Assembly (NCBI GenBank): GCA_964515375.1
Contig: CAZERF010000002.1
Coordinates: forward strand, 29,164-93,163
Source: an uncultured Candidatus Saccharibacteria bacterium
GTDB lineage: Bacteria > Patescibacteriota > Minisyncoccia > Phycocordibacterales > UBA6899
Direction: 5' to 3'
Length of the DNA stretch: 64,000 bases
Shown: in pieces, positions 4,263 through 35,749 of the stretch
How the letters are laid out: each line of letters opens with the position of its first letter
How positions within the stretch are numbered: the stretch's first letter is position 1
Made by a program: the position numbers and the translations under genes
Notes under the pieces: model-generated
What the model saw: the letters and a program-made list of their open reading frames with translations, nothing else
What the model was told of the DNA's origin: nothing
The model's database searches: none

Positions 4263-4269
4263 AACTTAT

Positions 4270-4638: not shown

Positions 4639-4745
4639 GATAGCAAAGAACGGGGAGATTTGCGACAATACTCACTTTTCAGCGAAAGTTCCTCAAGCCA
4701 GGAATAAAGGGTGACAAATCACCCCTCCTCGTCTACCATAGGGGC

Positions 4746-6947: not shown

Positions 6948-7180
6948 CGAAAAGACTTTCGCACGTTCACTATGTGTCCGCTCGAGGGATAATGTTCGAG
7001 TGGAGTCTGTATGCAAAGGTTGAATAGACATATGGAAACATTTCGTACAACCGTTCATCCGTCGGAGCAAGCTCCGTTCATCTGTGCAACCGTTTTCTTC
7101 CGTATGTTTTAATCATAGCGGAGTGACACCGCACGTCAACACCATTATGCACCGGGACACAAGATCGAGGAAACGAAAAA

Positions 7181-7325
7181 CTGAAAAAATATGGCTTAAA
7201 ATATAGATATTTAGATAACCATTTTAAGGACATGTCAAAAATCGGCTTGACAGAGCCGTTTTTTCAAGCACTCGTGCACTATCCCCGTCACAGAAAAAAT
7301 ATGGCTTAAAATAGACCTATTTCAT
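7181..7325. repeat. Two copies of a ~33-bp direct repeat (core GAAAAAATATGGCTTAAAATA, 7181-7215 and 7291-7325) flanking a bidirectional hairpin in the AT-rich intergenic region upstream of uvrD
   Basis: Direct sequence comparison. The 21-nt core is identical, followed by GA..TATTT. Confidence 0.6.
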
Positions 7326-17606: not shown

Positions 17607-17673
17607 TCGATCGTCGTAGCAATTGTTTAGTTCGTGAATTTGTTTGAAAGTTTGGAGGAGCAGAGACGCAATA

Positions 17674-20265: not shown

Positions 20266-20280
20266 CACTCCCCACAAATC

Positions 20281-21033
20281 ATGATCACGATCACAGCACA
20301 GCAATGGACCGAACGGTTCAAAATACTCCCTGAAGAGATCAGACAGATATTGATGAACGAAGAAGATCAGCTTCCTGATCGCCTTGAACAGATTCTTGCT
20401 TCAGAAAACCTTGACGAACTACAACTCGAACGTCTTTCCCGTCTCACTGCCTATCTCCTCATGGGTTTTGTTCACCCGACAGAATTTGTCGAATCGATCA
20501 CAAAAGACTGCGAAGTTGAGAATGAAAGGGCGGTCATCATTGCACAAGAGATCAACAAAATGATCTTCAGTCCGGCAAAAAATGCGCTCCAGCTCGTCCA
20601 CGAGCACAACAAGAAAGATTCCAGCATAACAAACATCTCAACAAACAACACTCCGGTCTCAAGAGAATCTCATTTTACTCAAACGACCGCTCCTGCACCT
20701 TTGCCCCCCTCACCCCTCACGGCAGCAACATCCTCCGAAATGCCCGCCGTCGAGCCAAAACCTCACATCGGAAACATCTTTGAGGAAAAGTTGGGCGGAT
20801 CGTTCCGTGTAAAGAGCGACGAGGTTGCCTACACCGCTTCAAAGACAAAGGCCGATATTCCACCTATTCCGCGCGTCACTCCTCCCGTATCTTCAACGCC
20901 TTCCCCGATACCTGCCTCGCCTTCAGCACCTGCACCAGTGGCAACCCCTCCTCTCCCGCCGACACCACCGATGCCTCCGACCCCTCCTGCTCCAACAGCA
21001 AAGAATCCGGACCCTTATCGCGAAGCAGTCTAA
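20281..21033 (+). CDS. Hypothetical protein with Pro-rich C-terminus (…PPLPPTPPMPPTPPAPT…)
   Basis: ORF with protein-like N-terminal 110 aa and a low-complexity P/T/S tail. Stop 4 bp before the terminator hairpin. Confidence 0.6.
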   Translation: MITITAQQWTERFKILPEEIRQILMNEEDQLPDRLEQILASENLDELQLERLSRLTAYLLMGFVHPTEFVESITKDCEVENERAVIIAQEINKMIFSPAKNALQLVHEHNKKDSSITNISTNNTPVSRESHFTQTTAPAPLPPSPLTAATSSEMPAVEPKPHIGNIFEEKLGGSFRVKSDEVAYTASKTKADIPPIPRVTPPVSSTPSPIPASPSAPAPVATPPLPPTPPMPPTPPAPTAKNPDPYREAV

Positions 21034-21037
21034 CAAA

Positions 21038-21066
21038 AACACCGCCTCAAATGGCGGTGTTTTTGT
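21038..21066 (+). terminator. Rho-independent terminator (AACACCGCC-TCAAAT-GGCGGTGTT + T-run)
   Basis: Perfect 9-bp stem followed by TTTTGTT. Confidence 0.7.
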
Positions 21067-21589
21067 TGCCCTTCCCCACATTGTGTATTCAAAACACACA
21101 CAGAAAACGGAGAAACCGAGAGCGACTCCTTTCTCCGAGGCATGCATACCTGCCGAGAGCTAGACTTTCCGAGACCACAAAGGATCTCCGTTGGTTTTCC
21201 TATTCCTTGTACAAGGGCCGCCCTTGTACGGGGATTCTCCGATGTCCATCCTTGGACAACCCCACAGAAACCAAAACCAGACTTATGTACTTACGTAACA
21301 ATCCTTTTCTGGATTCCTCGATAAACCTCGGCGTGACGAAAGAATGCATCTCCATCCCTCTCACACACATTCCACTCTCCCCGCAGTCACTAGGCGACCT
21401 CAAATTCAAGGAGCAAGGTGACGACGAATTTGGAAGTACTCGGAGCGGTGCTTGGTGTCGTCAAAACATTCCATTTGGCAACCCGGCAAACAACGAAAAA
21501 TAGCTCGCCAACACGAAATGTTGAACAAAACAACCTTATGAACATTCAAAACCTCATCAGGATAAGCTATAATAAAGAGAGTCACGCAT

Positions 21590-22018
21590 ATGCAATTCCA
21601 AGTCCCACAATTTCTCGACGTCGAAGACAAGATCATTGGACCCTTTACGATCAAACAATTCATCTACCTTGCCGGCGGAGTCGGTATGGGATATATGCTG
21701 TATCGCTTCATACCCTATATCGGAGCGATTCTCGGTCTTGCGGTGATCGCACTCGGATGGGCACTCGGATTCTACAAGTACAATGGTAAGCCCCTTGTTC
21801 ACCTTGTTCAATCAGCCTTCCTTTACGCACAGAGTGGCCGGCTCTATATTTGGAAGCGGGCAAAGCGTCCAAACGAGGACATCCTCGACCTCTCCAACTT
21901 CAAGACGACCAAACGTACCAACGTGCTCACCAGTCAACATCACACAAGCAAACTTTCGGGAATGGCATGGTCCATTGGCCTCGACAAGAGCACGGAAGAA
22001 GAAGATGCGCTCACGTGA
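21590..22018 (+). CDS. PrgI/VirB3-like small membrane protein of T4SS
   Basis: N-terminus MQFQVPQFLDVEDKIIGPFTIKQFIYLAGG followed by two TM helices. The size and position immediately upstream of VirB4 are typical of the PrgI family (VirB3 analogue). Confidence 0.55.
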   Translation: MQFQVPQFLDVEDKIIGPFTIKQFIYLAGGVGMGYMLYRFIPYIGAILGLAVIALGWALGFYKYNGKPLVHLVQSAFLYAQSGRLYIWKRAKRPNEDILDLSNFKTTKRTNVLTSQHHTSKLSGMAWSIGLDKSTEEEDALT

Positions 22019-22045
22019 TTATTCGTTTTTTGATATACTCATACC

Positions 22046-22696
22046 ATGCCCATACCAGGAAAACCGACGCAGGATTTCATTCCGATCAAAGATATTCGGA
22101 ATGGTATCATCGTATTGAACGACGGGGGACTCCGTATGATCCTGATGACCTCATCGCTCAATTTTGGACTCAAATCCTCCGACGAACAAGCGGCGATCAT
22201 CATGCAATTCCAGAACTTTTTGAACTCGATCGAATTCCCGATCCAGATCTATATTCAATCAAAACGTCTCAATATCACCCCGTACCTCAAACTCCTTGAA
22301 GAACGCGAGCGCGTTCAACTCATCGATGCCATGAAGATCCAGGTACATGAATATATCAGCTTCATCAAGGACTTCACAGATCGCACAAACATCATGTCAA
22401 AGACCTTCTTTATCGTGATTCCTTATTCAGGAGGTCTGCAGCTCAAGAAGGGAAGCGGGGTCATGCTCGGATCCGCGGCCCCTGTTTCCAAAACAGCAAA
22501 GAAGGGAGGGTTGTCGGAAGACGAGATCAAGCGTTTCGAAGAAGCCCGCACTCAACTCGAGCAGCGTGTCGCCATTGTCGAACAAGGTCTCGCGCGATGT
22601 GATGTACGCACAACTCGCCTCGGCGACGAAGAGATCACGGAGCTCTTTTACAAGAAATTCAACCCCGGCGAGCTTGAGTCCGCCGTGCAAAACTGA
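22046..22696 (+). CDS. VirB4/TrbE-like ATPase, N-terminal region (separate ORF, possibly a frameshifted part of one virB4 gene)
   Basis: …DFIPIKDIRNGIIVLNDGGLRMILMTSSLNFGLKSSDEQAAII… matches the conserved N-terminal segment of Gram-positive-type VirB4 proteins (TcpF/PrgJ-like). Stop is 5 bp before the next ORF. Confidence 0.6.
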   Translation: MPIPGKPTQDFIPIKDIRNGIIVLNDGGLRMILMTSSLNFGLKSSDEQAAIIMQFQNFLNSIEFPIQIYIQSKRLNITPYLKLLEERERVQLIDAMKIQVHEYISFIKDFTDRTNIMSKTFFIVIPYSGGLQLKKGSGVMLGSAAPVSKTAKKGGLSEDEIKRFEEARTQLEQRVAIVEQGLARCDVRTTRLGDEEITELFYKKFNPGELESAVQN

Positions 22697-22701
22697 ACAC
22701 C

Positions 22702-24507
22702 ATGCCCAACGAAAACAAAGGATACGAGATGTTCAACACTCAAGGAGTACTCCCTTCAGACCTTTACGAGGCGGCAAATGTCGACCTGCGCGACATCTTG
22801 GCTCCTGCGGCGGTCAAGGTCGAGCGCAACGCGATCTCGGTCGGAGACAAGCTTCTTCGAACATTCTTCGTTATTTCCTATCCGCGCTTCCTCTCGCAAG
22901 ATTGGTTCACTCCGGTTATCAACCTCGACAAGGTCTACGATATCTCGATCATGATCCACCCCGTCGAGACCGAACTCGCGCTCCGCACCTTCCAGAAAAA
23001 AGTCGCCGAAGTCCAGAGTCAGATCAACGAACGCGAGCGCAAGGGATTTGTGCGTGACCCGGTGCTCGATGTTGCATACCAAGATCTCGAGGACCTCCGT
23101 GACAAGCTCCAACAAGCACAGGAGCACCTCTTTGACGTCGGGGTCTACATCACTCTATATGGAAGCGACAAGGGAGAGCTCGACAAGGTTGAAGGCGAGC
23201 TCCGTTCGATCCTCGACTCCAAGCTTGTCTACCTGAAGCCCGCTATTTTTCAACAAGAACAAGGGTACCGCAGCGTTCTCCCTATCATGAAAGACGAGCT
23301 CGAAGTACACTACAAACTCAATTCCGCGCCGCTTTCTTCTATTTTCCCCTTTGTCTCCTTTGACTTAACCACCGACAAAGGGATTCTTTGGGGAATCAAT
23401 CGCCACAACGCCTCTCTCGTTCTTTTTGATCGCTTTTCGATGCCCAACTACAACTCGGTCACCTTTGCGGTCTCCGGTTCGGGAAAATCCTACACAACCA
23501 AACTCGAGATCTTGCGCACGCTCATGTTCGATGCGGATGTGATCGTGATCGACCCGGAGCAAGAATACCAATTCCTTGCAGAGGCGACAGGGGGGCGTTA
23601 CTTCAACATCTCACTCACCTCAGAGCACCACATCAACCCCTTCGACCTTCCAATCCCGCGCGACGACGAATCACCTGCCGACGTGCTTCGCTCAAACACG
23701 ATCTTTTTGGTCGGACTCTTCCGCATCATGCTGGGCGGGCTCTCTCCGGAAGAAGACGCCATCATTGACCGCGCCATTGGTGAAACCTACGCCCTCAAAG
23801 ATATCCACCCGGACTCAAACTTCGCCAACATCGAACCGCCACTTCTCTCCGACTTTGAACTCGTTCTCTCGGGAATGGACGGAACAGAAAGCCTCTTGCA
23901 GCGTCTCGAAAAGTACACCCGCGGAACATGGTCAGGGTTCATGAACATGCCGACGAACGTCGACATCACCAAACGCTTCACTGTTTTCTCTGTGCGCAAC
24001 ATGGAAGACGACCTAAAGCCGGTCGCGGTCTATATCATCACCCACCACATCTGGACCGCCATCCGCAAAGAACTTCGCAAACGCCTTCTCGTCGTCGACG
24101 AAGCCTGGTGGATGATGAAATCCGAAGACACTGCATCCTTCCTCTTTGGCCTCGCAAAACGCGGCCGCAAATACTACCTCGGTATCGCGACGATCACCCA
24201 AGACGTCAACGACTTCTTGCGCTCACCCTACGGACTTCCGATCTTGACCAACTCCTCCATCCAGATCCTCCTCAAGCAGTCCCCGACAACGATTGACCTT
24301 GTCCAACAAACCTTCCACATCACCGACGAGGAGAAGTACCTACTCCTTGAGTCGGGGGTGGGAGAAGGACTCTTCTTTGCCGGACTCAAACACGTCGCGA
24401 TCAAGGTCTACGCATCCTACACCGAAGACCAGATCGTCTCCTCCGATCCGGCACAGATGCTCGCGATCGCCAAAGCGAAAAAAGACCTTGAAATGGCACA
24501 AGAATAA
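22702..24507 (+). CDS. VirB4/TrbE-like T4SS ATPase, central and C-terminal ATPase region
   Basis: Walker A AVSGSGKSYTTK and Walker B LLVVDEAWWMM. Conserved …RTFFVISYPRFL…DISIMIHP… middle segment. 601 aa. Confidence 0.85.
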   Translation: MPNENKGYEMFNTQGVLPSDLYEAANVDLRDILAPAAVKVERNAISVGDKLLRTFFVISYPRFLSQDWFTPVINLDKVYDISIMIHPVETELALRTFQKKVAEVQSQINERERKGFVRDPVLDVAYQDLEDLRDKLQQAQEHLFDVGVYITLYGSDKGELDKVEGELRSILDSKLVYLKPAIFQQEQGYRSVLPIMKDELEVHYKLNSAPLSSIFPFVSFDLTTDKGILWGINRHNASLVLFDRFSMPNYNSVTFAVSGSGKSYTTKLEILRTLMFDADVIVIDPEQEYQFLAEATGGRYFNISLTSEHHINPFDLPIPRDDESPADVLRSNTIFLVGLFRIMLGGLSPEEDAIIDRAIGETYALKDIHPDSNFANIEPPLLSDFELVLSGMDGTESLLQRLEKYTRGTWSGFMNMPTNVDITKRFTVFSVRNMEDDLKPVAVYIITHHIWTAIRKELRKRLLVVDEAWWMMKSEDTASFLFGLAKRGRKYYLGIATITQDVNDFLRSPYGLPILTNSSIQILLKQSPTTIDLVQQTFHITDEEKYLLLESGVGEGLFFAGLKHVAIKVYASYTEDQIVSSDPAQMLAIAKAKKDLEMAQE

Positions 24508-24514
24508 TCTGCAA

Positions 24515-24543
24515 CAGACCCCAAAACGGGGTCTGTTGTTTTC
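24515..24543 (+). terminator. Rho-independent terminator (CAGACCCC-AAAAC-GGGGTCTG + TTGTTTT)
   Basis: Perfect 8-bp GC-rich stem plus T-rich tail, 8 bp after the virB4 stop. Confidence 0.75.
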
Positions 24544-24612
24544 CGGCTGATTTATCAACACACATGATCATTTTCTCAAACACAAGAGAGTGAAATAAGA
24601 TATAATGGACAA

Positions 24613-25119
24613 GTGGGAACGATAACAGAAAAGGTCGTAAAAAAGCGCACACCTCTTGTTGCTCAGAGAAACACGTACATCGAGGAAAAGACTGCTGAAG
24701 CCAAGAAAAACGAAGTGCCAAAGGGTGGCTACATCCTCTTTTTTCTCGTGCTGGGGGTCGCGCTCATCGAAGACCTTCTCGACGGTGCATTCATTCTGCT
24801 TCAGCTTGTCGGGACCGGGCTTTCAGCAACGGCAGTCGGCGCGCCACTTGGAATGCCGATTGCCTTCCTCGCTGCGTTTGGCGAAAAGCTTGTTGGCCTC
24901 TTTGCAACAATGACTCTCCTTTTCTACTTCGGATTTATCGGTGGACGGCTCAGTTTGCGGTTGGCGATAATGAGTGTTGGGTTTATAATGGAGATGGTCC
25001 CATTCCTAAGTCTCCTTCCGTTCACCACGTTCACATTTGTATCCGCCTTCATGTTCGGTCGTATTTCAAAAAAAGTTCAAGGAAAGATCGTCGGAAAAAT
25101 GATTCCTAATAAAACGTAA
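24613..25119 (+). CDS. Small polytopic membrane protein (hypothetical, 4 TM)
   Basis: GTG start per the ORF track. Hydrophobic helices (YILFFLVLGVALI, PLGMPIAFLAAFG, LFATMTLLFYFGFIGG, VPFLSLLPFTTFTFVSAFMFG). Confidence 0.55.
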   Translation: MGTITEKVVKKRTPLVAQRNTYIEEKTAEAKKNEVPKGGYILFFLVLGVALIEDLLDGAFILLQLVGTGLSATAVGAPLGMPIAFLAAFGEKLVGLFATMTLLFYFGFIGGRLSLRLAIMSVGFIMEMVPFLSLLPFTTFTFVSAFMFGRISKKVQGKIVGKMIPNKT

Positions 25120-25137
25120 TTTAACGCATCATAAGTC

Positions 25138-26109
25138 ATGACTCGTATACATTTCATTATCGTTTCCCTCTTCTCCTCATTCGTATTCTTTCCGTCTGTC
25201 GCACTTGCGATCGACCTCATCACTATGAGTACGATCCCCGCGATTCCGGGGCCCAACCAAGAGGTGACTCTCACCATCAACTCATTTGCGGTAAATCTCA
25301 ACTCCTCCGAGATCGTTTGGTATGTCGACGGAGAACCGATGGCGCAAGGCATGGCAATGAAAAGCTTCTCCTTCCGCACCAAGGATTTTGGGAGTCCCTC
25401 CATCATCAACGCATCGATCGTCGGCCCGAACGGCACGATCGACAAACGTTTTGTCGTAGAGCCTTCCGAAGTTGATCTTCTTTGGGAAGCCAATACTATC
25501 ACCCCGCCCTTTTATAAAGGAAAAGCGCTCCCCACCTTCAAAAGCTTGGTGCGGGTGACTGCAATTCCCCGCAAGAATTCCCCTTCAAGCGACCCCTCAA
25601 CCTTTTATTATAAATGGACATACAACCGCATCCAAGGACTCGGCGAAGCACAAAGCATGAACAGTGTCACGATTCCAATGGGTTACCCCGACTCTCCGGT
25701 CCCCGTCAATGTTGAAGTCACCATGAAAGGCACTGACTGGAAAGCACCGGAATTCATGAATGTCGTACCCACAGAACCAAAAATCGTCTTTTACGAAGAA
25801 GCGCCACTTCTTGGTACGAATTTTTTTACCGCACTCACAAAAGGGTCTGAACGAGAAGGCAATCAAATCGCTCTCCGTGCCGTGCCGTATTTCTTCTCGA
25901 CCGAGAACCTTATTAACAACGATCTCGTCTACACATGGATAGTGAACGGAACGACACAAGCACGCGGTTTTGACCCGACCAAGCTTCAACTCCAAAAGTC
26001 AGGAAAGGGTGCCGAGAGCTTCAGTGTCAACCTTCGCATCCAAAACCCGAAGCGCATTCTTCAAGAAGCGCGTGCAGCAACAAGCATTACACTCCCTTCG
26101 GAGGAATAA
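25138..26109 (+). CDS. Secreted protein (hypothetical), 323 aa
   Basis: Signal peptide …FFPSVALA|ID. Beta-rich composition. No catalytic motifs recognised. Confidence 0.65.
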   Translation: MTRIHFIIVSLFSSFVFFPSVALAIDLITMSTIPAIPGPNQEVTLTINSFAVNLNSSEIVWYVDGEPMAQGMAMKSFSFRTKDFGSPSIINASIVGPNGTIDKRFVVEPSEVDLLWEANTITPPFYKGKALPTFKSLVRVTAIPRKNSPSSDPSTFYYKWTYNRIQGLGEAQSMNSVTIPMGYPDSPVPVNVEVTMKGTDWKAPEFMNVVPTEPKIVFYEEAPLLGTNFFTALTKGSEREGNQIALRAVPYFFSTENLINNDLVYTWIVNGTTQARGFDPTKLQLQKSGKGAESFSVNLRIQNPKRILQEARAATSITLPSEE

Positions 26110-26130
26110 TCATTTTTTGACAAACGGTAT

Positions 26131-27534
26131 ATGGACGAACAACAACAAAATAACAAAAAGAAGATCATTATTGTGGGTGGGGTGATCATTGCGCTTCTTC
26201 TTGTTCTCCTCGGTGTTCTCTTCTTCTTGCGCAACGAAGAAGGAGAAGGGGGGATCATGACCTCACTCTTTGGCAATCTTGGTATTGAGACCCCTCGCGA
26301 AGGGAACGCGCCGATCACTCCGGGAGATCCTTCTTCAAACGGAGAAAACAATGGGCAACAAAAAGAAGAAGAACCTCTTTTCCGACAACTCTCGACATTT
26401 CCCGTTGCGGGAGCAACCTCACTCGAGAGGGGAGAGAAGACTGTTGTGCGATTCATTGCGCGTGAGAACGGGTTTGTCTATGAAACGGATCCACGCACCG
26501 GGGTCGTCACCCAGCTCACCAATACAACCGTCCCCCGCATCCACGAGGCACGCTTTGCACTCGACGGAGGGGCAATCATCCTTCGCTATCTTCAGGTCGA
26601 AGATCGACTTCTAAAGAAAGAGAGCATTCGTACGTATCTTGCCTATCTTTCAGTCCCCGAATTTTCTGCAGAAAGCACCTCAACCAACCCTGTGCTCGGA
26701 CGGTTGACCGGGGATTTCCTTCCCGACAATATCACTGAACTCAGTGTTTCACCCGATGGGACGCAACTGTTTTACCTTCTCCCGATCGCAAACGGCGTTT
26801 CCGGAACGATTGTGAATATTCGCACCAAAGAAGCCCGTGAGATCTTTCGCAATTCCTTTAGCGAATGGATTCCTCAACTCTTGAATGACGGAACGATCAT
26901 CCTTACCACCAAGGCATCCGCGCGGTTTGAGGGTTATGTCTATCATTACGACCCCGACAAGAAGACTCTTTCTCGCGTGATCAGAAAAGTGCGCGGTGTC
27001 ACCTCATTTACCAACCCAACGGGCACACGCACCCTTTTCAATGAAATTACTCCAGGTTCTGTTCGCTTGAATGTGTGGACACAAGAGGGGTATCTCTATG
27101 ACGAAGAGGGGGTACGAGAGAGCATCACGATTCCCATTGCAACACTCCCTGAAAAATGCTCATGGGCAAAAAACAACGTCCGTATTTTTTGTGGCGCATC
27201 AATGGGCACCCCGCGCGGAGAGCTCCCCGATGAGTGGTATCAGGGCACAATGAGCTTCCAAGACACCTTCTGGACTGTCGACACGGACACTTCTGAGATC
27301 ACCTTTCTCGCGGACCCAACCAAGGAAGAGAAGGCTCTACGTTCATTTGACGTCATTTGGCCGTTCACGAGTGTTGATGAGCGCTACATGATCTTTACCA
27401 ACAAAACCGACATGAACCTCTGGTCATTCCGTATTCCGAAAGAAAAATACATGGAACAAGAGAAGGACACCTCAACCGAAGAGGAAGAATTGACCGAAGA
27501 CGAACTCAAAGATGCGGCCGGAAGCCAACTCTAA
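26131..27534 (+). CDS. N-terminally membrane-anchored protein with probable beta-propeller (TolB/PD40-like) ectodomain. Hypothetical.
   Basis: K-rich start, then TM (IIIVGGVIIALLLVLLGVLFFL). Repeated SPDG-type blades (LSVSPDGTQLFYL). Acidic C-terminus. Confidence 0.6.
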   Translation: MDEQQQNNKKKIIIVGGVIIALLLVLLGVLFFLRNEEGEGGIMTSLFGNLGIETPREGNAPITPGDPSSNGENNGQQKEEEPLFRQLSTFPVAGATSLERGEKTVVRFIARENGFVYETDPRTGVVTQLTNTTVPRIHEARFALDGGAIILRYLQVEDRLLKKESIRTYLAYLSVPEFSAESTSTNPVLGRLTGDFLPDNITELSVSPDGTQLFYLLPIANGVSGTIVNIRTKEAREIFRNSFSEWIPQLLNDGTIILTTKASARFEGYVYHYDPDKKTLSRVIRKVRGVTSFTNPTGTRTLFNEITPGSVRLNVWTQEGYLYDEEGVRESITIPIATLPEKCSWAKNNVRIFCGASMGTPRGELPDEWYQGTMSFQDTFWTVDTDTSEITFLADPTKEEKALRSFDVIWPFTSVDERYMIFTNKTDMNLWSFRIPKEKYMEQEKDTSTEEEELTEDELKDAAGSQL

Positions 27535-27950
27535 AAAAGAGATCCCCTCACTGGGGATTTCTTTTTGGGTCTTTTTCATCATGACGAGTATAATGAAAGG
27601 ATGATACGCATATTCACACTTCTCTTTTCTCTTATTCCATTCTTTGCGTTTGCGGGTGACAAAACATATACACTCATTGCTCCGATCGGAACATTGAGTG
27701 GTGCGGTGACTCTCCAAACATATCTCGAGGGTGCATTCACGACCATTATCGGTATTGCAGGGATCTTGGCGGTCCTTATGCTCGTGATCTGCGGGATCAA
27801 ACTGATGGGTACCGGGTCGGTATCCGCAAAGAGTGAAGCGAAGCAGTGTATCTATAATGCGATCTTTGGACTACTCTTGGCATTGTCATCGTGGATCATC
27901 TTAAACACGATCAATCCGATGCTTCTGCGGAGTGATGCGGAGCTGGCGGT
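27533..27950 (+). repeat. Copy 1 of a 418-bp perfect tandem direct repeat (copy 2 at 28685..29102) carrying terminator, promoter/RBS and the first ~117 codons of the downstream gene
   Basis: By-eye alignment of the two regions shows identity across terminator hairpin, GAAAGGATGATACGC start region and 130 identical N-terminal residues (counted from the ORF-track start) in the two ORFs. Identity breaks at 27951/29103. Confidence 0.85.
27541..27567 (+). terminator. Rho-independent terminator (GATCCCC-TCACT-GGGGATC + TTTCTTTTTGG). An identical copy is at 28693..28719.
   Basis: Hairpin plus T-run immediately after the 26131..27534 stop. It is part of the duplicated module. Confidence 0.65.
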
Positions 27951-28683
27951 TGCGGTGCCGTCGGCGCCTCCGGCGGCACAATCACAAGGAGGAGTGCTTG
28001 AGGGTGGTCAAGTCGCGCCTGGGGACGATCCAATGCCAACCGAAGAAGGCTGGTACTATCGCTACAAAGTTCCCGCAGGGAATGTGAAGAACTCGACAAG
28101 ATTTGATACCGCACAAGGTTGTCTTTCAGTACAAGAGGCACAAGAACAAACAGAACCGGCGAGTGTCGTCAAAAAATGCTTCCAGGTCGAAAAACAAGTT
28201 GGAGGAGTCACACTTTCGGGACTATCAGCAGATGAAAAAGGCACGCGAAATGCGTTGTGTGGGAATGACTCTTGTGTGAGTGAAAGCTCAACCAATGTGT
28301 ACATTAACAACGCGCCATGCCCCCCGGGAAGCGCCGGGAAGGGGTGTACCAATGTCACAAAACTTCCCACCGAAACCGTGAACATGGTGAAATCACTGGC
28401 GTCAAAATGTGGATGCAGAGTAACGATCACCGGAGGGACAGAACCCGGACACCAAACACACGGGCCAAACAATCCCCAGATCGATATCACTCTCAAAAAC
28501 CCGACACTCAACAATTATATTCAAAAGAATGCGACAGCATCTCGCGCTGCAGGAGGAAATGCTGCCAATAAATATGCGGTTGACGGATGGTGGTTCGTCG
28601 ACGAAAAAGGTGCTCAACCCCACTGGCATATCTGCCCAGTCGGATATGTCCAAGAAAGGGAAAAATGGTGTGGGCCAATATAG
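27601..28683 (+). CDS. Secreted/membrane-anchored protein, paralog A. N-terminal SP+2-TM module (VirB2/TrbC-like topology). C-terminal Cys-rich domain, possibly a Zn-dependent M15-like peptidoglycan peptidase.
   Basis: Start at ATGATACGC (MIRIF…) with GAAAGGA SD. The ORF track starts 36 nt earlier. C-terminal motifs …ITGGTEPGHQTHGPNNPQIDITL… and …PHWHI are reminiscent of H-x(n)-D…H zinc ligands of M15 peptidases. This is weak. Confidence 0.6.
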   Translation: MIRIFTLLFSLIPFFAFAGDKTYTLIAPIGTLSGAVTLQTYLEGAFTTIIGIAGILAVLMLVICGIKLMGTGSVSAKSEAKQCIYNAIFGLLLALSSWIILNTINPMLLRSDAELAVAVPSAPPAAQSQGGVLEGGQVAPGDDPMPTEEGWYYRYKVPAGNVKNSTRFDTAQGCLSVQEAQEQTEPASVVKKCFQVEKQVGGVTLSGLSADEKGTRNALCGNDSCVSESSTNVYINNAPCPPGSAGKGCTNVTKLPTETVNMVKSLASKCGCRVTITGGTEPGHQTHGPNNPQIDITLKNPTLNNYIQKNATASRAAGGNAANKYAVDGWWFVDEKGAQPHWHICPVGYVQEREKWCGPI

Positions 28684-28684
28684 C

Positions 28685-29102
28685 AAAAAAGAGATCCCCT
28701 CACTGGGGATTTCTTTTTGGGTCTTTTTCATCATGACGAGTATAATGAAAGGATGATACGCATATTCACACTTCTCTTTTCTCTTATTCCATTCTTTGCG
28801 TTTGCGGGTGACAAAACATATACACTCATTGCTCCGATCGGAACATTGAGTGGTGCGGTGACTCTCCAAACATATCTCGAGGGTGCATTCACGACCATTA
28901 TCGGTATTGCAGGGATCTTGGCGGTCCTTATGCTCGTGATCTGCGGGATCAAACTGATGGGTACCGGGTCGGTATCCGCAAAGAGTGAAGCGAAGCAGTG
29001 TATCTATAATGCGATCTTTGGACTACTCTTGGCATTGTCATCGTGGATCATCTTAAACACGATCAATCCGATGCTTCTGCGGAGTGATGCGGAGCTGGCG
29101 GT
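28685..29102 (+). repeat. Copy 2 of the 418-bp perfect direct repeat
   Basis: See copy 1. Confidence 0.85.
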
Positions 29103-29991
29103 ATACGTACCCAAGGCTCCCACAGGAGCACCTGCGGTGGGAAGTACTCCAAGTATAGCTGGTGCCCCAACTGCACCAGGTTGTTATTTTAAGTTCAAAG
29201 ACCTAAAAACAAAAAAGACTGAGTATCAACGTTTTGACTCAACAAGCGACGGAACATGTCTATCATGCAACGAAGTACGCAGAAATTTTCAACTCTACCC
29301 CGAACAATATGAAATACTAAGCGAATGTTACGAGATCAAGGAAGGTCAAACTCCCACCCCTCCTCCGGGAGATACAAGAGGAACACTCATGGATGGCGTA
29401 CGTTGTTCAGGACAACCTGCGAACCTCTGCGAGCCGTATCCGCTTCCCGGTGGCTGCGAAAACACACAATGCGCACAATTCTTTCCAATGGTGAGGAGTG
29501 CGGCAAGAGGTTCGGCAACCGCAAGTTTTCTTATGGCAATGATAGTAAAAGAGTCCTCATGCGGAATGAACCTCACCTCCCCTGCGGGAGCATGTGGACC
29601 AACACAACTCCTTCCATCAACAGCAAACGCATATAAAGCAGCCTGTGGTGTCACCGAAACAATCACTTGCCAATGGTTAGCAAGTAAGGCAAACTGGCAG
29701 AAGGCGATATGTATCAGTGCAAATTACTTCAACTCCAACACAGGAAGCGGTTGTGGTTCTAGTGTTATCGGACTTGCGGCGGGGTACAACGGTGGATACG
29801 GGAGTAAAACCTGTGGCCCAAGTGCAAACTGTGCCTCTCAAACAAGTTGCCGCGGTGGAACAGTGCGTCGCTGGGAATGCCCCTACGAAGACAATGCGCA
29901 CACTCAGTGTAACGCAGGGTATAGAGAAACACGAAACTATGGACCGATGGTCCTCTACTGTCAGCAGTATTACCAACAGAAAGGACTCTGA
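28753..29991 (+). CDS. Secreted/membrane-anchored lytic transglycosylase-like protein, paralog B (VirB1-like function inferred). Identical N-terminal module to paralog A.
   Basis: C-terminal region carries SLT-family signature …MIVKESSCGMNLTSPAGACGPTQLLPSTANAY… (E-S catalytic pair, AGA-G-Q-L-P-TA) and a …LAAGYNGG… (AYN-G) motif. Confidence 0.65.
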   Translation: MIRIFTLLFSLIPFFAFAGDKTYTLIAPIGTLSGAVTLQTYLEGAFTTIIGIAGILAVLMLVICGIKLMGTGSVSAKSEAKQCIYNAIFGLLLALSSWIILNTINPMLLRSDAELAVYVPKAPTGAPAVGSTPSIAGAPTAPGCYFKFKDLKTKKTEYQRFDSTSDGTCLSCNEVRRNFQLYPEQYEILSECYEIKEGQTPTPPPGDTRGTLMDGVRCSGQPANLCEPYPLPGGCENTQCAQFFPMVRSAARGSATASFLMAMIVKESSCGMNLTSPAGACGPTQLLPSTANAYKAACGVTETITCQWLASKANWQKAICISANYFNSNTGSGCGSSVIGLAAGYNGGYGSKTCGPSANCASQTSCRGGTVRRWECPYEDNAHTQCNAGYRETRNYGPMVLYCQQYYQQKGL

Positions 29992-29993
29992 TC

Positions 29994-30716
29994 ATGAAAA
30001 AAATACTCGTTACACTTATCGCACTACTCTTCCTTCCTTTCTCTCTTGTTTGGGCAATGACCGCATCTCCTATTGAGGAATGGCATATTATCTATCATCT
30101 AAAGTATCGAAACGGGACACTCACATCGGATACCTCATCAGGTTTGGCGTACACCCCGATCATGTATACCCCAGAGTCGCTCGGTCAATCAGATCCAAAA
30201 GATTCCGACTTTTACGCAACAACTCTAAGCGGGAGCGGTACAGAGATCGAACGATTCGGTTTCAACATCCCCACCGTCTATTCACCGGCGCTTGGAGAAA
30301 GTCTCTTTGATGTGACCGGAAAATACTTTGCGTATGCCGATCGCATTGTTTTTTTCAAGAAGGGAGGAGTTGAACTCTTCCGGATCTCACTCAAGGGAAG
30401 TTCTTTTTGTAACGAAGACACGGTGTGCAATGCGGATGCTGGAGAGGATCACATGAACTGTCCAATGGACTGCCCAGCTCCACAGCCAACGACACAAACA
30501 GAGCAAGATCCGACAACAAAGAACGTCACACCCGCAACCCCAAACACCGGTACACCAAATGCGCCGATCGATGTTTCAGTAACACAAGGAGGCGAAAACG
30601 GGAGCAGTACACCACTCCTCACTCCAACACGCACAACTCTCATCGTCGCATCACTTATTGTTCTCATCCTCTTCGGAATACTCTGGAAACTCAAAAGATT
30701 CCGAGATGAAGAATAA
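29994..30716 (+). CDS. Secreted protein with C-terminal TM anchor (hypothetical)
   Basis: Signal peptide …FSLVWA|MT. P/T-rich linker. C-terminal TM (LIVASLIVLILFGILW) plus basic tail. Terminator follows. Confidence 0.65.
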   Translation: MKKILVTLIALLFLPFSLVWAMTASPIEEWHIIYHLKYRNGTLTSDTSSGLAYTPIMYTPESLGQSDPKDSDFYATTLSGSGTEIERFGFNIPTVYSPALGESLFDVTGKYFAYADRIVFFKKGGVELFRISLKGSSFCNEDTVCNADAGEDHMNCPMDCPAPQPTTQTEQDPTTKNVTPATPNTGTPNAPIDVSVTQGGENGSSTPLLTPTRTTLIVASLIVLILFGILWKLKRFRDEE

Positions 30717-30722
30717 GAACAA

Positions 30723-30751
30723 CCCCCTTCAGATGAAGGGGGTTTCTTTTT
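30723..30751 (+). terminator. Rho-independent terminator (CCCCCTTC-AGAT-GAAGGGGG + TTTCTTTTT)
   Basis: Perfect 8-bp stem plus T-run. The minus-strand jag gene ends 8 bp further on, so it is probably bidirectional. Confidence 0.75.
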
Positions 30752-30758
30752 GTGTTCC

Positions 30759-31235
30759 TTATTCGGAGACAATAGTGTCTTTAAACCGGAGAACGACATG
30801 ACGATCCTTTCCGCTCCCCGCAGATTCAGTTGTTATATCAGAAGTATCGGCGAATTCAGAATGGACGATCATACGCTCGTACGAACTCATCGGATCCATT
30901 TCAACAGAGCTTTTGAAATATCGCGCGCGTTCCGCGAGCATGTGTGCTTTCGCGCGGATATCCTCAATATGCTTCTTTTGATAGTCATTCACATCGATCA
31001 TGAAGGAAAGATCACTCTCCTTGGCCTGACGCTCAAATATGCGCTTCATGATGTGATTGAGCGCCATAAGTCGTGCTCCATGTTCACCGATCAGGAGCGC
31101 GGAATCGGGGGTCTCGATGACGAAACGCAATGTTCCCGTCCGCTCATCCTCTTCAGTACGGATCTCGTTCACCACAACACCGAGAGTTCGGAGTATCGTG
31201 TGCAATGCGGTTATGATCGTTTCTTTGTGTTCCAT
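30759..31235 (-). CDS. jag: Jag/KhpB-like RNA-binding protein (KH + R3H domains)
   Basis: The KH-like GxxG region (LIGEHGARL) and the conserved position immediately downstream of yidC support this. Confidence 0.75.
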   Translation of the reverse strand: MEHKETIITALHTILRTLGVVVNEIRTEEDERTGTLRFVIETPDSALLIGEHGARLMALNHIMKRIFERQAKESDLSFMIDVNDYQKKHIEDIRAKAHMLAERARYFKSSVEMDPMSSYERMIVHSEFADTSDITTESAGSGKDRHVVLRFKDTIVSE

Positions 31236-31304
31236 AGGAGAATGGCGTTAGGGTAATAAAAATCCCTCCGACAAGAGGGATTTACATTTCAACACAAAAG
31301 TTCA

Positions 31305-32042
31305 CTATTTCGCACGAAGCGCAAGTCTCTTTTTGTGCATCAACATCTCTTGACCGATACCAAGTATATTACTCGTTGCCCAATAAAGCGCAACCGCCGC
31401 GGGGAGTGTAAAGGAAATGATTCCGACGATCACAGGGAGCACATAACGAAGTTGGAGTTGCATTGTTTTTGCAAAATCCTCTTGAAATGAGGGCTTCTCT
31501 CCTTTCTTTGGTTCGATCGCCGGTTGATTCTTAATGGAAATATGAGCCTGGAGATACTGAGTAAAACCGGCAAGAAAAGCGAGGACGGCACTTTTTCCCA
31601 AGAGGTCAAACCCGAGAAAATGCATATCAAGCTCTCCCGGCGAAGAAACAAAAGGATAGAGAATACTCACGTCGATCGTGGGGAGTCCTTTGAAGAATAC
31701 CCAATACAAGCCGAAGATAATAGGGATCTGGATCAGAATAGGAAGACAACCGGAAAAAGGGGTGATCCCTTTTTTCTGGTAAAGTTCCATGGTCTTTTGT
31801 GCCAACTGCTGTTGATCCTTACCGTATTTCTCTTTGAGTGCCTTGAGTTCAGGTTCAAGCTCTTTCATTGCATGTTGTGCCTCGATCGACTTTCCCGCCA
31901 AAGGATACAACACAAGCTTCACAACAAGAGTAAGGAGAATGATCGCCACCCCAACAGAGTGCCACGGAAGGAAGTCAATAATGAGAACCAGAATATTATA
32001 GAGTGGTTGATAGACAACAGAGTGCCAAATAGATGAGATCAT
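31305..32042 (-). CDS. yidC: Membrane protein insertase YidC/Oxa1 (short monoderm-type form)
   Basis: 60 kDa-IMP core motifs (…PFSGCLPILIQIPIIFGLYWVF…). 245 aa and no large periplasmic domain. Canonical rnpA-yidD-yidC context. Confidence 0.88.
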   Translation of the reverse strand: MISSIWHSVVYQPLYNILVLIIDFLPWHSVGVAIILLTLVVKLVLYPLAGKSIEAQHAMKELEPELKALKEKYGKDQQQLAQKTMELYQKKGITPFSGCLPILIQIPIIFGLYWVFFKGLPTIDVSILYPFVSSPGELDMHFLGFDLLGKSAVLAFLAGFTQYLQAHISIKNQPAIEPKKGEKPSFQEDFAKTMQLQLRYVLPVIVGIISFTLPAAVALYWATSNILGIGQEMLMHKKRLALRAK

Positions 32043-32099
32043 GAATGAGTGATTACCGGAAGATGTAAGTGACGAACAATACCTATACTATACCTTCCG

Positions 32100-32339
32100 T
32101 CACGGAAAATCCACCAATTTTTTTTGGTACGGATGACACTGCAAAACACGTCGTACCCCTTTCAATATCCCTTTTATCGGGCCATATTTACGCACCGCAA
32201 GAATCATGTATTCCGAACACGAAGGATACATGGTGCAATAGGTACCCCGGAGTCCAAGGAACTTTCTCAACATTCCCTGATCAGGGGAGAGGATACGTTG
32301 ATAAAAACGCACACCACGAACAATAAATTCAGTGAGCAT
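32100..32339 (-). CDS. yidD: Membrane protein insertion efficiency factor YidD
   Basis: RFYQRILSP…CRFYPSCSEY-type motif (CTMYPSCSEY). 79 aa. Overlaps the rnpA stop. Confidence 0.85.
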   Translation of the reverse strand: MLTEFIVRGVRFYQRILSPDQGMLRKFLGLRGTYCTMYPSCSEYMILAVRKYGPIKGILKGVRRVLQCHPYQKKLVDFP

Positions 32340-32673
32340 GTTGCATCAAAAGAAAAGCATCGAGATCCGCGCGAATATCGGCAAAAGCGATCGTACCCAC
32401 CTTTCGAAGCGGAAAAATGACCACCTTTCCGTGCACAAAGTGATCAAACGCGGGATAAAGCGGAAAAAGGGCAGCGAGTGCTCGTCTTTTGAAAAGATGG
32501 CGCTCAACCGCATTGTTTGAATGCTTCTTTGCGACCACAACAGAAAAAAGGGTCTTTTGTGGACCTGTACCGGTATACGAAACGACCCGCACCGCTTTTC
32601 CGTCATAAGTCGACCGTCGATCCCGATATGAAGGGAAGGTGTGACGGGTAAGCTTACGATCTTTAGAAAGCAT
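32329..32673 (-). CDS. rnpA: Ribonuclease P protein component RnpA
   Basis: Basic 114-aa protein with a VAKKHSNNAVERHLFKRR-type RNR-like motif. Sits between rpmH and yidD. Confidence 0.8.
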   Translation of the reverse strand: MLSKDRKLTRHTFPSYRDRRSTYDGKAVRVVSYTGTGPQKTLFSVVVAKKHSNNAVERHLFKRRALAALFPLYPAFDHFVHGKVVIFPLRKVGTIAFADIRADLDAFLLMQHAH

Positions 32674-32736
32674 AGAGCGAGATGATTACACGAAAAAGTC
32701 CGCGGCTGTGGAAAAACGCCGGGTAAGGAATGATCC

Positions 32737-32871
32737 TTAGACTGCGAGGCGCGCGCGTCCCTTCTGCATTCTCCGCTTGAGTACAGTCTTTCCGTTCGCT
32801 GTCTTCTTGCGAACGAGAAAACCGTGTGTTTTCGCGCGTTTACGCTTTTTGGGTTGATATGTGACTGACAT
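32737..32871 (-). CDS. rpmH: 50S ribosomal protein L34
   Basis: [44 protein letters not shown] is the 44-aa L34 signature (TYQP…RKR…THGF…GR). The ORF track starts further upstream (32946). Confidence 0.85.
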
Positions 32872-32946
32872 GCGGCGAAGTATAAAATACTTTCTTTTAT
32901 TTTTCAACATTGCCCATCGTTCTTTTGTGGTGTAATGTTTGTCCAC

Positions 32947-33047
32947 AGGTTATACACGACATATGAACAGTTCGGTCTTTTTCTCTCGCACCGACTTCTT
33001 CGCTATAATGATGCTTACGTTATTGAACTAACTTTGGAGGACTTTTT
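32947..33047. promoter_or_regulatory. rpmH-dnaA intergenic region with DnaA-box-like motif (TTGTCCACA) and dnaA promoter (TATAAT-like at ~33003)
   Basis: 8/9 match to TTATCCACA at 32940-32948. AT-rich. Classical origin-proximal location. Confidence 0.4.
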
Positions 33048-34397
33048 ATGGAGAATAAAGAATTATGGAGCAGGGCGCTGGTTGATATTGAGCTTGAAGT
33101 TTCCAAAGCGAACTTCAGTACATGGTTCAAGAACACCAGGATCACGAAACAGGAGGACGGTACGGTCTATATCGGGGTTCAAAATGAGTTCGTGCGTGAC
33201 TGGCTCTCCAACAAGTACCACTCCATGCTCCTCAAAACCCTCCGAAACCTCTCCGAACAAGTACGCAATATTGAGTACGTTATCGTCAAAGACGACGGTA
33301 TTGAGCGTCCGGAACATCCGCAAAAGAAAGATCTTTTCCCCACACTCAGCGCCGAACTCCCACTTCAAGACACCTACGTGAATCGAGAAGACGGCTTAAA
33401 TCCTCGTTATATTTTTGATTCCTTCGTCATTGGACCCTTCAATGAGCTTGCCTATGCCGCAGCACAAGCGGTTCTCAAGAAGCCGGGAATCATGTATAAC
33501 CCACTCTTTATCTACGGATCGACCGGATTCGGAAAGACCCACTTGATTCAATCGATCGGAAACGGAGTTAAACACCAATATCCCGGAAAAAGAGTGCAAT
33601 ACATCAGTTCTGAGAAATTCGCGACCGATTATGTGAACTCCCTCCAGAACAATCGCGTCAATGAATTCAAGGAAAAATATCGCAAATTCGATGTCCTGAT
33701 CATGGATGATATTCAGTTCTTGGTAGGGAAGGAGAAGACTCAAGAGGAACTCTTCCATCTCTACAACGCCCTCTACGAGAACAACAAACAGATCATCTTC
33801 TCCTCAGACAAACATCCCAACTACATCAATGGGCTTGAAGACCGACTCAAATCACGTTTTGGATCAGGGATGATCGTCGAGATCACGATGCCGGACTTCG
33901 AATCACGTCTCGCTATTCTTCGTGAAAAACTCAAACAACAACAAGTTATCATTCCCGACGAGATCGTCGCGCATATCGCGGAAACGATCCAAGCAAGCAT
34001 TCGCGAACTCGAGGGAACCCTCAATCTCGTTGTTTGCCAAGCACAACTTAAGAACAAGACACTATCCCTAAATGAGGTAAAAACTCTCATCAAAAACAAC
34101 GCAAAACCGACAAAACCGGTCTCCATCAAAGATATCGTCAAGACGATCACTACCTTCTACAACATCGATGAACGCTTCATTTATGAAAAGACTCGCCGCA
34201 AGGAGGTGGTAAAACCGCGCCAAGTATTGATGTACATCCTTCGTGAAGATTTCAACATCTCCTATCCTTTGATCGGACAAAAACTAGGCGGACGTGATCA
34301 CACGACGGTTATACACTCGTGTGAGAAGATCAAAGTAGACATAAAGAGTGACACACTCCTTATGCAGGAGATCGAGCAGATCCGTGCAATGTTCTAA
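33048..34397 (+). CDS. dnaA: Chromosomal replication initiator protein DnaA
   Basis: Walker A GSTGFGKTHL, sensor motifs, C-terminal DNA-binding helix-turn-helix. 449 aa. GGAGG SD upstream. Confidence 0.93.
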   Translation: MENKELWSRALVDIELEVSKANFSTWFKNTRITKQEDGTVYIGVQNEFVRDWLSNKYHSMLLKTLRNLSEQVRNIEYVIVKDDGIERPEHPQKKDLFPTLSAELPLQDTYVNREDGLNPRYIFDSFVIGPFNELAYAAAQAVLKKPGIMYNPLFIYGSTGFGKTHLIQSIGNGVKHQYPGKRVQYISSEKFATDYVNSLQNNRVNEFKEKYRKFDVLIMDDIQFLVGKEKTQEELFHLYNALYENNKQIIFSSDKHPNYINGLEDRLKSRFGSGMIVEITMPDFESRLAILREKLKQQQVIIPDEIVAHIAETIQASIRELEGTLNLVVCQAQLKNKTLSLNEVKTLIKNNAKPTKPVSIKDIVKTITTFYNIDERFIYEKTRRKEVVKPRQVLMYILREDFNISYPLIGQKLGGRDHTTVIHSCEKIKVDIKSDTLLMQEIEQIRAMF

Positions 34398-34648
34398 AGT
34401 GTGAACTGTGGAGAAGGTCGGGGATAACACACGTTTGAGTGGGGATGAAAAACAAGGAGACTGGGGATGGGTTGTGGATGAATGTGTGCGTAGTGAAAGA
34501 GAGGTGTGGATATCACCAAACATCTCCACAGACTACACAATAAAAAATGTCGGATATATCGTTCTTAAATAAGGGTATAGTATCGCTCATCCACATATCC
34601 ACACCGGTAATTCATATAATAGATCTTATATAAAGAAGTTATACAGTT
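34398..34648. promoter_or_regulatory. Putative oriC: dnaA-dnaN spacer with ≥4 DnaA-box-like 9-mers (TGTGGATGA, TGTGGATAT, TCATCCACA, TATCCACAC, GGGGATAAC) and an AT-rich DUE-like tract (34541-34600)
   Basis: Motifs read directly from the sequence. Each is an 8/9 match to TTATCCACA/TGTGGATAA in both orientations. Confidence 0.55.
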
Positions 34649-35749
34649 ATGAAGCTCGAATGCGTAAAACTCAATCTCAAAGATGCATTGCTCACTGCGG
34701 AACGGTTCACGGGGAAGCGTGTTTCGTTGCCGGTGCTCCGTTACGTGCTTTTCATTGCCGGTGAAAAGTCACTCAAACTTCGTGCGACGAATCTCGAGAT
34801 GGGGATCGAGATCGAACTCCCCGCTCGCGTGGAGAAAGAGGGTGTCATTGCGATACCGGCTGATACACTGGGTAACTTTCTTTCAAATCTTCCGAGCGAG
34901 AAGAATGTGACGATCGAGCAAGCTGAAGGAAATCTTCTTATTGCCGGTTCAACCTATTCGACGGTCATTAAGGGTTTTCCTTATGAGGACTTTCCTACGC
35001 TGCCGTTCGTGACTAAGGGAATCAGTTTTGATATTGAAGCACGTCAATTGGTGGAAGGTTTCCGTGCAACACAGTTCTCTGTGGCGCTCTCGATGGTCAA
35101 GCCGGAATTCGCGAGTGTGTATGTGTATACCGAGGAAGGAATGCTGGTGATGGTCGCAACTGACTCGTCACGCCTCGGAGAGAAGCGTGTAGCGCTCAAA
35201 AATGCTCCTGAAGGCCTCTCGATGCTTATTCCCGGGACCAATGTCGTTGAGCTTGTTCGTGCGCTTGAAGGGGTGAATGAGAGGGTTTCCGTCGTTGCGA
35301 CAAAAAACCAAGTGACATTCAGTACGGAGCATATTCACATCACCTCTCGCCTTGTTGATGGAGTGTTTCCTGATTATCATCAGATCATTCCGAAGAAGTT
35401 TACTACTGAAGTGGTACTTCTTCGTCAGGATCTTGTTGATCGTCTTCGTATGACCACGGTGTTCTCGGGGAAATTGCAACAAGTACGCCTTAAGATCTAT
35501 CCGCAAGAGAAGCTTTTTGAGGTAGAGTCTCGCAACGATGAGATCGGAGAGACATCACAACAGGTTGACGCGACACTTTCCGGTGAGTCGGTTGAATTTC
35601 TTTTGAATCAGCGATTTTTAAACGACGTTCTCTCGTATCTCTCAACTGATAGTGTGACGCTTTCTGCGAGTGGTGCAGGAAAACCTCTTGTAGTTCGCGG
35701 TGTTGGTGATCATTCATTTCTTTACCTCCTCATGCCGATGCGCGGTTGA
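34649..35749 (+). CDS. dnaN: DNA polymerase III beta sliding clamp DnaN
   Basis: 366 aa with three-domain beta clamp pattern. Immediately follows dnaA. Confidence 0.9.
   Translation: MKLECVKLNLKDALLTAERFTGKRVSLPVLRYVLFIAGEKSLKLRATNLEMGIEIELPARVEKEGVIAIPADTLGNFLSNLPSEKNVTIEQAEGNLLIAGSTYSTVIKGFPYEDFPTLPFVTKGISFDIEARQLVEGFRATQFSVALSMVKPEFASVYVYTEEGMLVMVATDSSRLGEKRVALKNAPEGLSMLIPGTNVVELVRALEGVNERVSVVATKNQVTFSTEHIHITSRLVDGVFPDYHQIIPKKFTTEVVLLRQDLVDRLRMTTVFSGKLQQVRLKIYPQEKLFEVESRNDEIGETSQQVDATLSGESVEFLLNQRFLNDVLSYLSTDSVTLSASGAGKPLVVRGVGDHSFLYLLMPMRG

Follow-up and report, generated by a model that had tools for sequence, protein, structure and literature searches.

Gene conversion between the pilin-like modules of two adjacent, putatively wall-cutting fusion genes in a patescibacterial type IV secretion cluster

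The VirB1-type hydrolases of Gram-positive conjugation include TraG (pIP501), PrgK (pCF10), CwlT (ICEBs1) and TcpG (pCW3). Concerted evolution, for its part, is known from the bacterial tuf and rrn copies and from pilE/pilS conversion in Neisseria. The Patescibacteria have a chromosomal type IV secretion system (T4SS) that is related to monoderm conjugation machinery, often adjoins dnaA and includes VirB2-like pilins (PMC12102498). These pilins are encoded in arrays and are small and divergent in sequence: they share 25% identity on average and at most 54% (Quinonero-Coronel et al. 2025, PMC12102498). The T4SS and the pilins are essential for the epibiotic growth of S. epibionticum (PMC10633639), and so, according to the passage of PMC12102498 that cites Wang 2023, are peptidase and lysozyme homologues encoded downstream of virB4. 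Here we analyze a window of 64,000 nt (the whole stretch of DNA studied: GCA_964515375.1, contig CAZERF010000002.1, positions 29,164 to 93,163) from an uncultured Candidatus Saccharibacteria bacterium, in which two adjacent plus-strand genes of such a cluster, gene 1 (27601..28683, 360 residues) and gene 2 (28753..29991, 412 residues), begin with the same pilin-like module and continue into different cysteine-rich domains, which we call X in gene 1 and SLT in gene 2. With a probability of about 0.78, we read the pair as old tandem paralogues in an origin-proximal T4SS cluster whose modules have been homogenized by gene conversion and which encode a split set of tethered, VirB1-like wall hydrolases. 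While the T4SS and pilin arrays of Patescibacteria are known already (PMC12102498), a literature search turned up no account of fusions between pilins and hydrolases, of the X domain or of modules evolving in concert.

The modules of the two genes lie within a direct repeat. Compared base by base, 27533-27950 and 28685-29102 match exactly over 418 bp at an offset of 1152, as the first-pass annotation had judged by eye, and self-comparison revealed neither a shorter nor an imperfect match. There are 0 bases of leftward extension beyond 27533 and 28685, and counted per 25 bases the identity falls from 25/25 to 3-12/25, the chance level, on either side of the repeat. A repeat search found this pair to be the sole long high-identity repeat within the 64 kb, and a chance origin of the match is excluded. 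Copy 1 starts inside the TAA (27532-27534) of the upstream gene and ends in codon 117 of gene 1, while copy 2 starts 1 base past the stop codon of gene 1; each covers 116 codons and one base of its gene. The start codons adopted are ATG 27601 and ATG 28753; the open reading frame (ORF) list had a TTG 36 bases upstream for both genes, and the ATG codons were preferred because homologues begin at the signal peptide and because NCBI calls proteins of 360 (P0333) and 412 residues.

All parts of the cassette that had been proposed at first reading, namely a hairpin, a promoter region, a signal peptide and a two-helix module, were located in both copies. The terminator-like hairpin (27534..27566 and 28686-28718, plus strand) consists of an A run, a GC stem and a T run, with 14 pairs, a loop of 5 and a T-rich tail, and an 86-nt stretch that includes it (27525-27610) folds at -26.3 kcal/mol (z = -3.4). 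A TATAAT box, read from the sequence as a putative promoter, lies 6 nt 5' of each ATG (27589..27594 and 28741-28746, plus strand); a promoter consensus scan did not list the one at 27589-27594, owing to a weak -35 hexamer. In L084, the contig with the closest relative found, the equivalent hairpin is kept at ~68% DNA identity, and TATAAT-N7-ATG stands at the same place (L084 ~3330-3347). The position of the box suggests a possible promoter of a leaderless or near-leaderless mRNA for both genes and for the L084 orthologue. In both genes a purine-rich GAAAGG abuts the ATG, which leaves less than the usual spacing of a Shine-Dalgarno sequence.

An exact repeat with sharp edges that includes noncoding DNA is what a fresh duplication looks like, and the first-pass annotation had accordingly offered a very recent duplication as one of two explanations, with ongoing gene conversion as the other. 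Under the former, a tandem duplication or cassette insertion would have made the second 5' module only recently, and the pair would be young. However, proteins that match gene 1 or gene 2 over the full length, at 40-67% identity, are encoded on dozens of Patescibacteria contigs, and the relatives of the two genes belong to the Lloydbacteria, Paceibacteria, Zambryskibacteria and related groups. Where the DNA of tandem pairs was fetched and their order and neighbors were compared, the shared order is VirB4, ~170 residues, ~325 residues, ~470 residues, module-X, module-SLT, ~240 residues, jag/yidC and dnaA, so that many distant genomes have both C-terminal types, arranged in this order and between these flanking genes. 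In addition, the regions just past the repeat are homologous yet only ~28% identical (over ~100 residues; E = 2e-4). The conserved tandem pair and this low identity together indicate that the duplication is old and covered more than the module, and intermediate grades of module divergence are all represented among other genomes, along with mosaic tracts. Because the pair is old and conserved, we exclude a fresh duplication as the source of the identity and consider a young pair very improbable.

The module-to-module DNA identity within individual loci forms a graded series. It is 100% over 418 nt in the window, 99.7% over 301 nt in L040, 98.5% over 333 nt in L083, 98.4% over 193 nt in L082, and 92% over 407 nt in L002, where the mature module is 100% identical; lower values were found in L057 (87% over 203 nt), L008 (84% over 264 nt), L085 (83% over 380 nt), L003 (82% over 318 nt), L007 (76% over 316 nt) and L009 (73% over 176 nt). 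A codon alignment of eight genomes with an X and SLT pair was used to determine the proportion of synonymous differences (pS). In seven of the eight, the paralogous modules are reciprocal nearest neighbors by nucleotide identity. The exception is L009, where the best match of either module is the orthologous one of L003 and the signal of orthology has been kept. Within genomes, pS is 0 in the window and in L002, 0-0.07 in L083, 0.5-0.7 in L003, L007 and L085, and 0.67 in L009, against a between-genome median of 0.75-0.76. L082 is a mosaic, with a pS of 0.73 in the first half of the module and of 0.07 in the second. The ends of the tracts also vary: that of the window includes the hairpin and the promoter region, that of L002 excludes the signal peptide, and that of L083 is internal to gene 2. 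In seven further same-contig protein pairs the module identity is 79-99%, versus a background median of 60%; one other pair shows no such elevation. A third module gene (~650 residues), found at another place in the genomes that have the tandem pair, has a module of ~71% nucleotide identity to theirs and is not homogenized.

Could purifying selection on a shared protein interface have produced this pattern alone, without recombination? The module is strongly conserved across genomes at the protein level, and the proportion of nonsynonymous differences (pN) is only 0.2 in its second half. However, synonymous sites and the 68 noncoding bases are also identical in the window, although synonymous differences between orthologues are near saturation (median, 0.75), and pS switches abruptly within the module of L082. 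Since synonymous and noncoding sites are identical, selection alone is excluded; we regard it as refuted by the synonymous-site data and give it virtually no chance. Recurrent gene conversion between neighboring old paralogues is the supported explanation of module identity, as judged from the divergence patterns of these sequences, with 7/8 genomes showing reciprocal nearest paralogues, pS running from 0 to background and tract ends that vary; of the two explanations originally offered, it is ongoing conversion that holds. A recent non-reciprocal homologous recombination between the 5' modules, with a tract that here carried the terminator hairpin and the promoter-like region as well, made the two copies identical. 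Such conversion recurs across the clade, the modules evolving in concert while the rest of both genes diverges.

The first-pass annotation had also warned that the repeat was a likely place for assembly trouble, and this warning proved apt. One copy could be spurious, or two similar copies could have been merged into an identical consensus, as short-read assemblers break or collapse at such repeats. A Joint Genome Institute (JGI) metagenome contig, L001 (3,441 bp), is 100% identical to 27865-31305 of the window; it starts 86 bp before the end of copy 1, which looks like a repeat-induced break, and from there covers the part of gene 1 that lies outside the repeat, all of copy 2, gene 2 and the gene that follows. 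In L084, where the gene 2 protein (P0083) has 67% identity with that of the window, the order over 1932-4643 is upstream gene A, repeat unit R and gene 2 (A-R-C), and the whole contig lacks a gene 1 domain, a state that reflects either recombination between direct repeats or an assembly collapse. Of the contigs that end just after gene 1 homologues, the GTDB contig L005 runs exactly up to the start of a second mature module, while L010 and L011 do not end in a second module; L015 and L023 start inside a module. Against an artifact stands the presence of all three junctions (R-gene 1, gene 1-R and R-gene 2) in the second assembly: L001 comes from a different assembly than the 160,294-bp NCBI contig on which the proteins of the window lie, and the arrangement has therefore been reproduced. 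The architecture is likewise conserved in related loci, and other assemblies retain 1-5 mismatches between their two module copies, which shows that assemblers do not always merge near-identical copies. An artifact is, in our view, improbable. Searching the metagenome contig collection with an exact 50-nt pattern from the repeat gave no match, and a protein-seeded scan of the same collection led to one distant locus. The counts and identities published for pilin arrays in metagenome-assembled genomes are probably biased, because in-genome repeats break or collapse short-read assemblies at this locus.

The two proteins share a signal peptide, MIRIFTLLFSLIPFFAFA (residues 1-18; cleavage motif AFA|G), followed in gene 1 by the mature pilin-like module (27655..27951, plus strand; residues 19-~117), with helices at 38-70 and 74-103 and a short basic, K-rich loop between them; hydropathy peaks lie at 48-66 and 83-109. 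A VirB2/TrbC-like module had been proposed from its topology, and a profile search against T4SS pilin models bears this out: PF18895 (T4SS_pilin) scores 39.7 bits for gene 1 and 39.4 bits for gene 2, above the Pfam gathering threshold of 26.6. The threshold of PF04956 (TrbC/VirB2) is not reached by gene 1 (13.6 versus 27.9 bits; E = 0.078), though a few relatives do reach it, and the NCBIfam Mbov_0395 pilin-like family of a mycoplasma integrative conjugative element scores 27 bits, under its cut-off of 40. An AlphaFold2 model of gene 1, built with 54 homologues, has a mean predicted local distance difference test score (pLDDT) of 84, with values of 83-90 over the module helices, a disordered linker at 108-137 and then a confident C-terminal domain. 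In other Patescibacteria the same module is fused to VanY, NlpC/P60, SLT_2, M15_4 and YkuD domains. A third family also has the module, at the N terminus of proteins of 620-1,290 residues whose large C-terminal regions are rich in Cys and Pro (L012 and L016-L021; e.g., L017:6001-7953).

Past the repeat, the C termini had been described as unrelated and the divergence as complete, which we did not find. Homology continues for the ~100 residues mentioned above, through a subdomain with the pattern PxPTxxG[W/C]YF[R/K]Y, where profiles of the two families match each other at 1e-6 to 1e-11. In gene 1 an Ala/Pro linker (~108-137) leads into this subdomain, which reads GWYYRY (~141-205), and then into the Cys-rich X domain; in gene 2 a linker is followed by a GCYFKF subdomain and a Cys-rich SLT domain. 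NCBI protein P0042 is 100% identical to gene 2 over its full length. The SLT-like call for gene 2 holds: PF01464 matches at 29509..29805 (plus strand; residues 265-363 of the 424-residue reading) with 31.1 bits against a cut-off of 21.3, and the C-terminal part alone gives 32.1 bits. The hallmarks of the SLT family are a catalytic Glu in an E-S motif, G-x-x-Q and A-Y-N-x-G. Gene 2 has KESSC, GPTQLL and AAGYNGG, and ESSC, GP and AAGYN.G.G are conserved in >=90% of 14 orthologues. In one relative (L083:5001-6731) the SLT gene has an extra ~190-residue domain and signal peptide before the module, which is thus internal. There are 12 cysteines in the gene 1 protein and 22 in that of gene 2, many of them invariant in their families. 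These Cys-rich enzyme parts imply disulfide-bonded extracytoplasmic domains in a Patescibacteria cell.

The identity of the X domain (core at 28243..28680, plus strand; pLDDT of the C-domain model, 88) is less straightforward. An M15-like peptidase had been proposed for it, and this remains unproven: we found no Pfam family for the gene 1 C-domain even at E<=10, peptidase profiles such as PF02557, PF13539 and PF08291 included; phmmer and two profile searches brought up no PDB sequence, and Foldseek returned nothing significant from PDB, with full-length and domain models, or from BFVD. The top, nonsignificant Foldseek matches include VanY-like LdcB and phage M15A peptidases, helices flank a small beta sheet in the predicted fold, and hhalign of the X domain against VanY domains fused to the same module returned a probability of 0.3%. 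The resemblance is one of motif. Invariant in 54 relatives are T277-G-G-T-E281, H284, H287-x7-D295, E335, H341-W-H343 and several cysteines; the core motif pattern is also invariant or nearly so in 72 distant relatives, with E281 and E335 conserved. The zinc-ligand pattern H-x(3-7)-D plus H-x-H is present (H287-x7-D295 and H341-W-H343), predicting metal binding, and from this H-x7-D...E...HxH motif we take X to be a metallo-hydrolase. The family is large, with 2,014 representative clusters at E<=1e-3 and 926 at 1e-10; of the 72 distant members, 45 have PF18895 and 0 have a Pfam hit on the X domain. No protein with both X and SLT was found. Apparent double matches reflect the shared subdomain, P0259 and P0274 have no SLT, and two members reported as SLT positive were not identified.

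The pair lies near the end of a plus-strand cluster (16008-30716). A polytopic VirB6-like candidate, recognized by hydropathy, occupies 17644-20265; genes for PrgI/VirB3-like (21590-22018), TrsD/VirB4 N-terminal-like (22046-22696) and VirB4-type ATPase (22702-24507) proteins follow on the same strand, 3-6 kb upstream of the pair. VirB4 seems to be split, with a 216-residue protein matching N-terminal VirB4/TrsD models and then a 601-residue P-loop ATPase (22046-24507). Immediately upstream of the repeat is gene A (26131..27534, plus strand; 467 residues, N-terminal transmembrane anchor), which has the same position in L082, L083, L084 and L085; downstream is a gene for 240 residues with a signal peptide and a C-terminal transmembrane segment (29994..30716, plus strand), whose position is conserved in related loci, followed at its 3' side by a strong bidirectional terminator (30721-30744). 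A muralytic SLT domain is therefore encoded in the T4SS cluster downstream of virB4, a position that is conserved in relatives. The origin neighborhood (30759..35749) holds jag, yidC and rnpA on the minus strand and dnaA (33048-34397) and dnaN (34649-35749) on the plus strand; the cumulative GC-skew minimum falls at ~32-34 kb, the window spans the chromosomal replication origin, and the cluster ends ~2.3 kb from dnaA. The cluster matches the published Patescibacteria T4SS in being chromosomal, lying near dnaA and having VirB2-like pilin modules (PMC12102498). A mobile element or phage origin was considered and rejected, the synteny being chromosomal and conserved. Elsewhere in the window, a 152-nt direct repeat of 71% identity (2998-3149 and 44004-44155) lies inside minus-strand ORFs at 2556-4262 (568 residues) and 43568-45247 (559 residues), which are probably paralogous genes, and two 33-nt AT-rich direct repeats of 88% identity, 110 nt apart (7180-7212 and 7290-7322), lie in the intergenic region 5' of a UvrD-like helicase gene (7370-9385).

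How does this locus compare with the systems already described? It resembles the Patescibacteria VirB2-like pilin arrays (PMC12102498, PMC10633639) in having PF18895, a chromosomal T4SS with VirB3, TrsD and VirB4 near dnaA, and tandem module genes, but the module is here the N-terminal third of putative enzymes of 360 and 412 residues, and its copies are identical in DNA. Like the VirB1-type hydrolases, the pair is encoded inside a monoderm (MPF-FATA-like) T4SS cluster, would be membrane tethered and act outside the membrane, as predicted from the sequence, and combines a lytic transglycosylase/muramidase with a second, here putative, wall-cleaving activity. In contrast to TraG, PrgK and CwlT, which are single polypeptides, there are two genes with one enzyme domain each; a pilin-like hairpin takes the place of the single transmembrane helix as tether, and the second domain belongs to an uncharacterized family rather than to CHAP, NlpC/P60 or LytM. 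The LAS zinc peptidases (M15 VanY/VanX/LdcB, the Streptomyces DD-peptidase of M15A and lysostaphin of M23) share the H-x7-D, the H-x-H and conserved Glu residues with gene 1, although its domain is without a significant sequence, profile or fold match and is Cys-rich, with several invariant cysteines. Conversion of the tuf/rrn and pilE/pilS type is alike in being a non-reciprocal recombination between nearby copies, with variable tract ends and paralogues closer than orthologues, but differs in that here only one module, with or without the regulatory region, of two multidomain genes is homogenized. Whereas conversion of the Neisseria pilin yields antigenic variation, conversion of the kind seen in the window yields sameness.

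We propose that each protein is laid out as a Sec signal peptide, a VirB2-like two-helix module, a flexible Ala/Pro linker, the small shared beta/alpha subdomain and a Cys-rich extracytoplasmic wall enzyme. By the positive-inside rule, the basic loop between the helices would be cytoplasmic and the C-terminal enzyme outside the membrane, a location that fits the many cysteines and wall substrates. The pair may then be a split equivalent, tethered to the membrane or to the apparatus, of the bifunctional VirB1-type hydrolases, opening peptidoglycan for the T4SS, and identical modules and upstream signals could give both enzymes the same targeting, docking or coassembly, and expression.

Several observations weigh against this proposal, or limit it. 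The two assemblies are not shown to stem from different samples and may share reads, and the true identity may lie slightly below 100% if near-identical copies were merged in assembly. The strong conservation of the module across genomes indicates that selection contributes to the similarity too, and the case for conversion therefore rests on synonymous sites. The enzymatic nature of the gene 1 domain is read only from its conserved His, Asp and Glu residues. The VirB1-like role is drawn from domain content and gene neighborhood, and the substrate may be the cell's own wall or that of the host. Finally, there is no stand-alone pilin within the 64-kb window, which leaves the module without an assigned partner for docking or assembly.

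This last observation bears also on another possibility, that the modules are true pilins. They would polymerize, either by themselves or together with a major pilin whose gene lies elsewhere, and form a T4SS filament with both enzymes on its surface; such a filament would attack the host wall instead of remodeling that of the cell itself. In its favor, the module is a T4SS_pilin family member and is followed by a long, disordered linker, many other wall-active domains (the VanY, NlpC/P60, SLT_2, M15_4 and YkuD fusions described above) are found on the same module, and by analogy with VirB2/TraA topology the C terminus should face outward. The essential role of T4SS and pilins in the epibiotic growth of S. 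epibionticum (PMC10633639) is consistent with such a filament, and homogenization would keep its packing interfaces compatible. However, besides the lack of a stand-alone pilin in the 64 kb, a domain of 25-30 kDa per subunit is sterically hard to fit into a VirB2-type filament. We consider a filament unlikely, although it is the alternative that we take most seriously. A bolder form, to which we attach somewhat less weight still, is that the identical VirB2-like modules are polymerization units with which the pair and other module-enzyme fusions coassemble into or onto a wall-drilling T4SS pilus. If this were true, glycan- and peptide-cutting enzymes on flexible linkers would let an epibiont breach host peptidoglycan, gene conversion would keep the packing interfaces of enzyme-bearing subunits interchangeable, and X would represent a new muralytic metallo-enzyme family of ~2,000 sequence clusters.

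In summary, we describe two adjacent genes of a patescibacterial T4SS cluster that we read as old paralogues with converted modules and as tethered, VirB1-like wall hydrolases. The pilin-like module of the Patescibacteria T4SS is routinely found in fusion with domains of wall-cutting enzymes, and one of the fused domains, a putative enzyme, represents a large uncharacterized family of ~2,000 clusters that has no Pfam model. Neighboring fusions are, on the evidence of their synonymous sites, kept identical in the module by gene conversion. These proteins provide testable candidates for how such cells may open the cell wall at the site of secretion.

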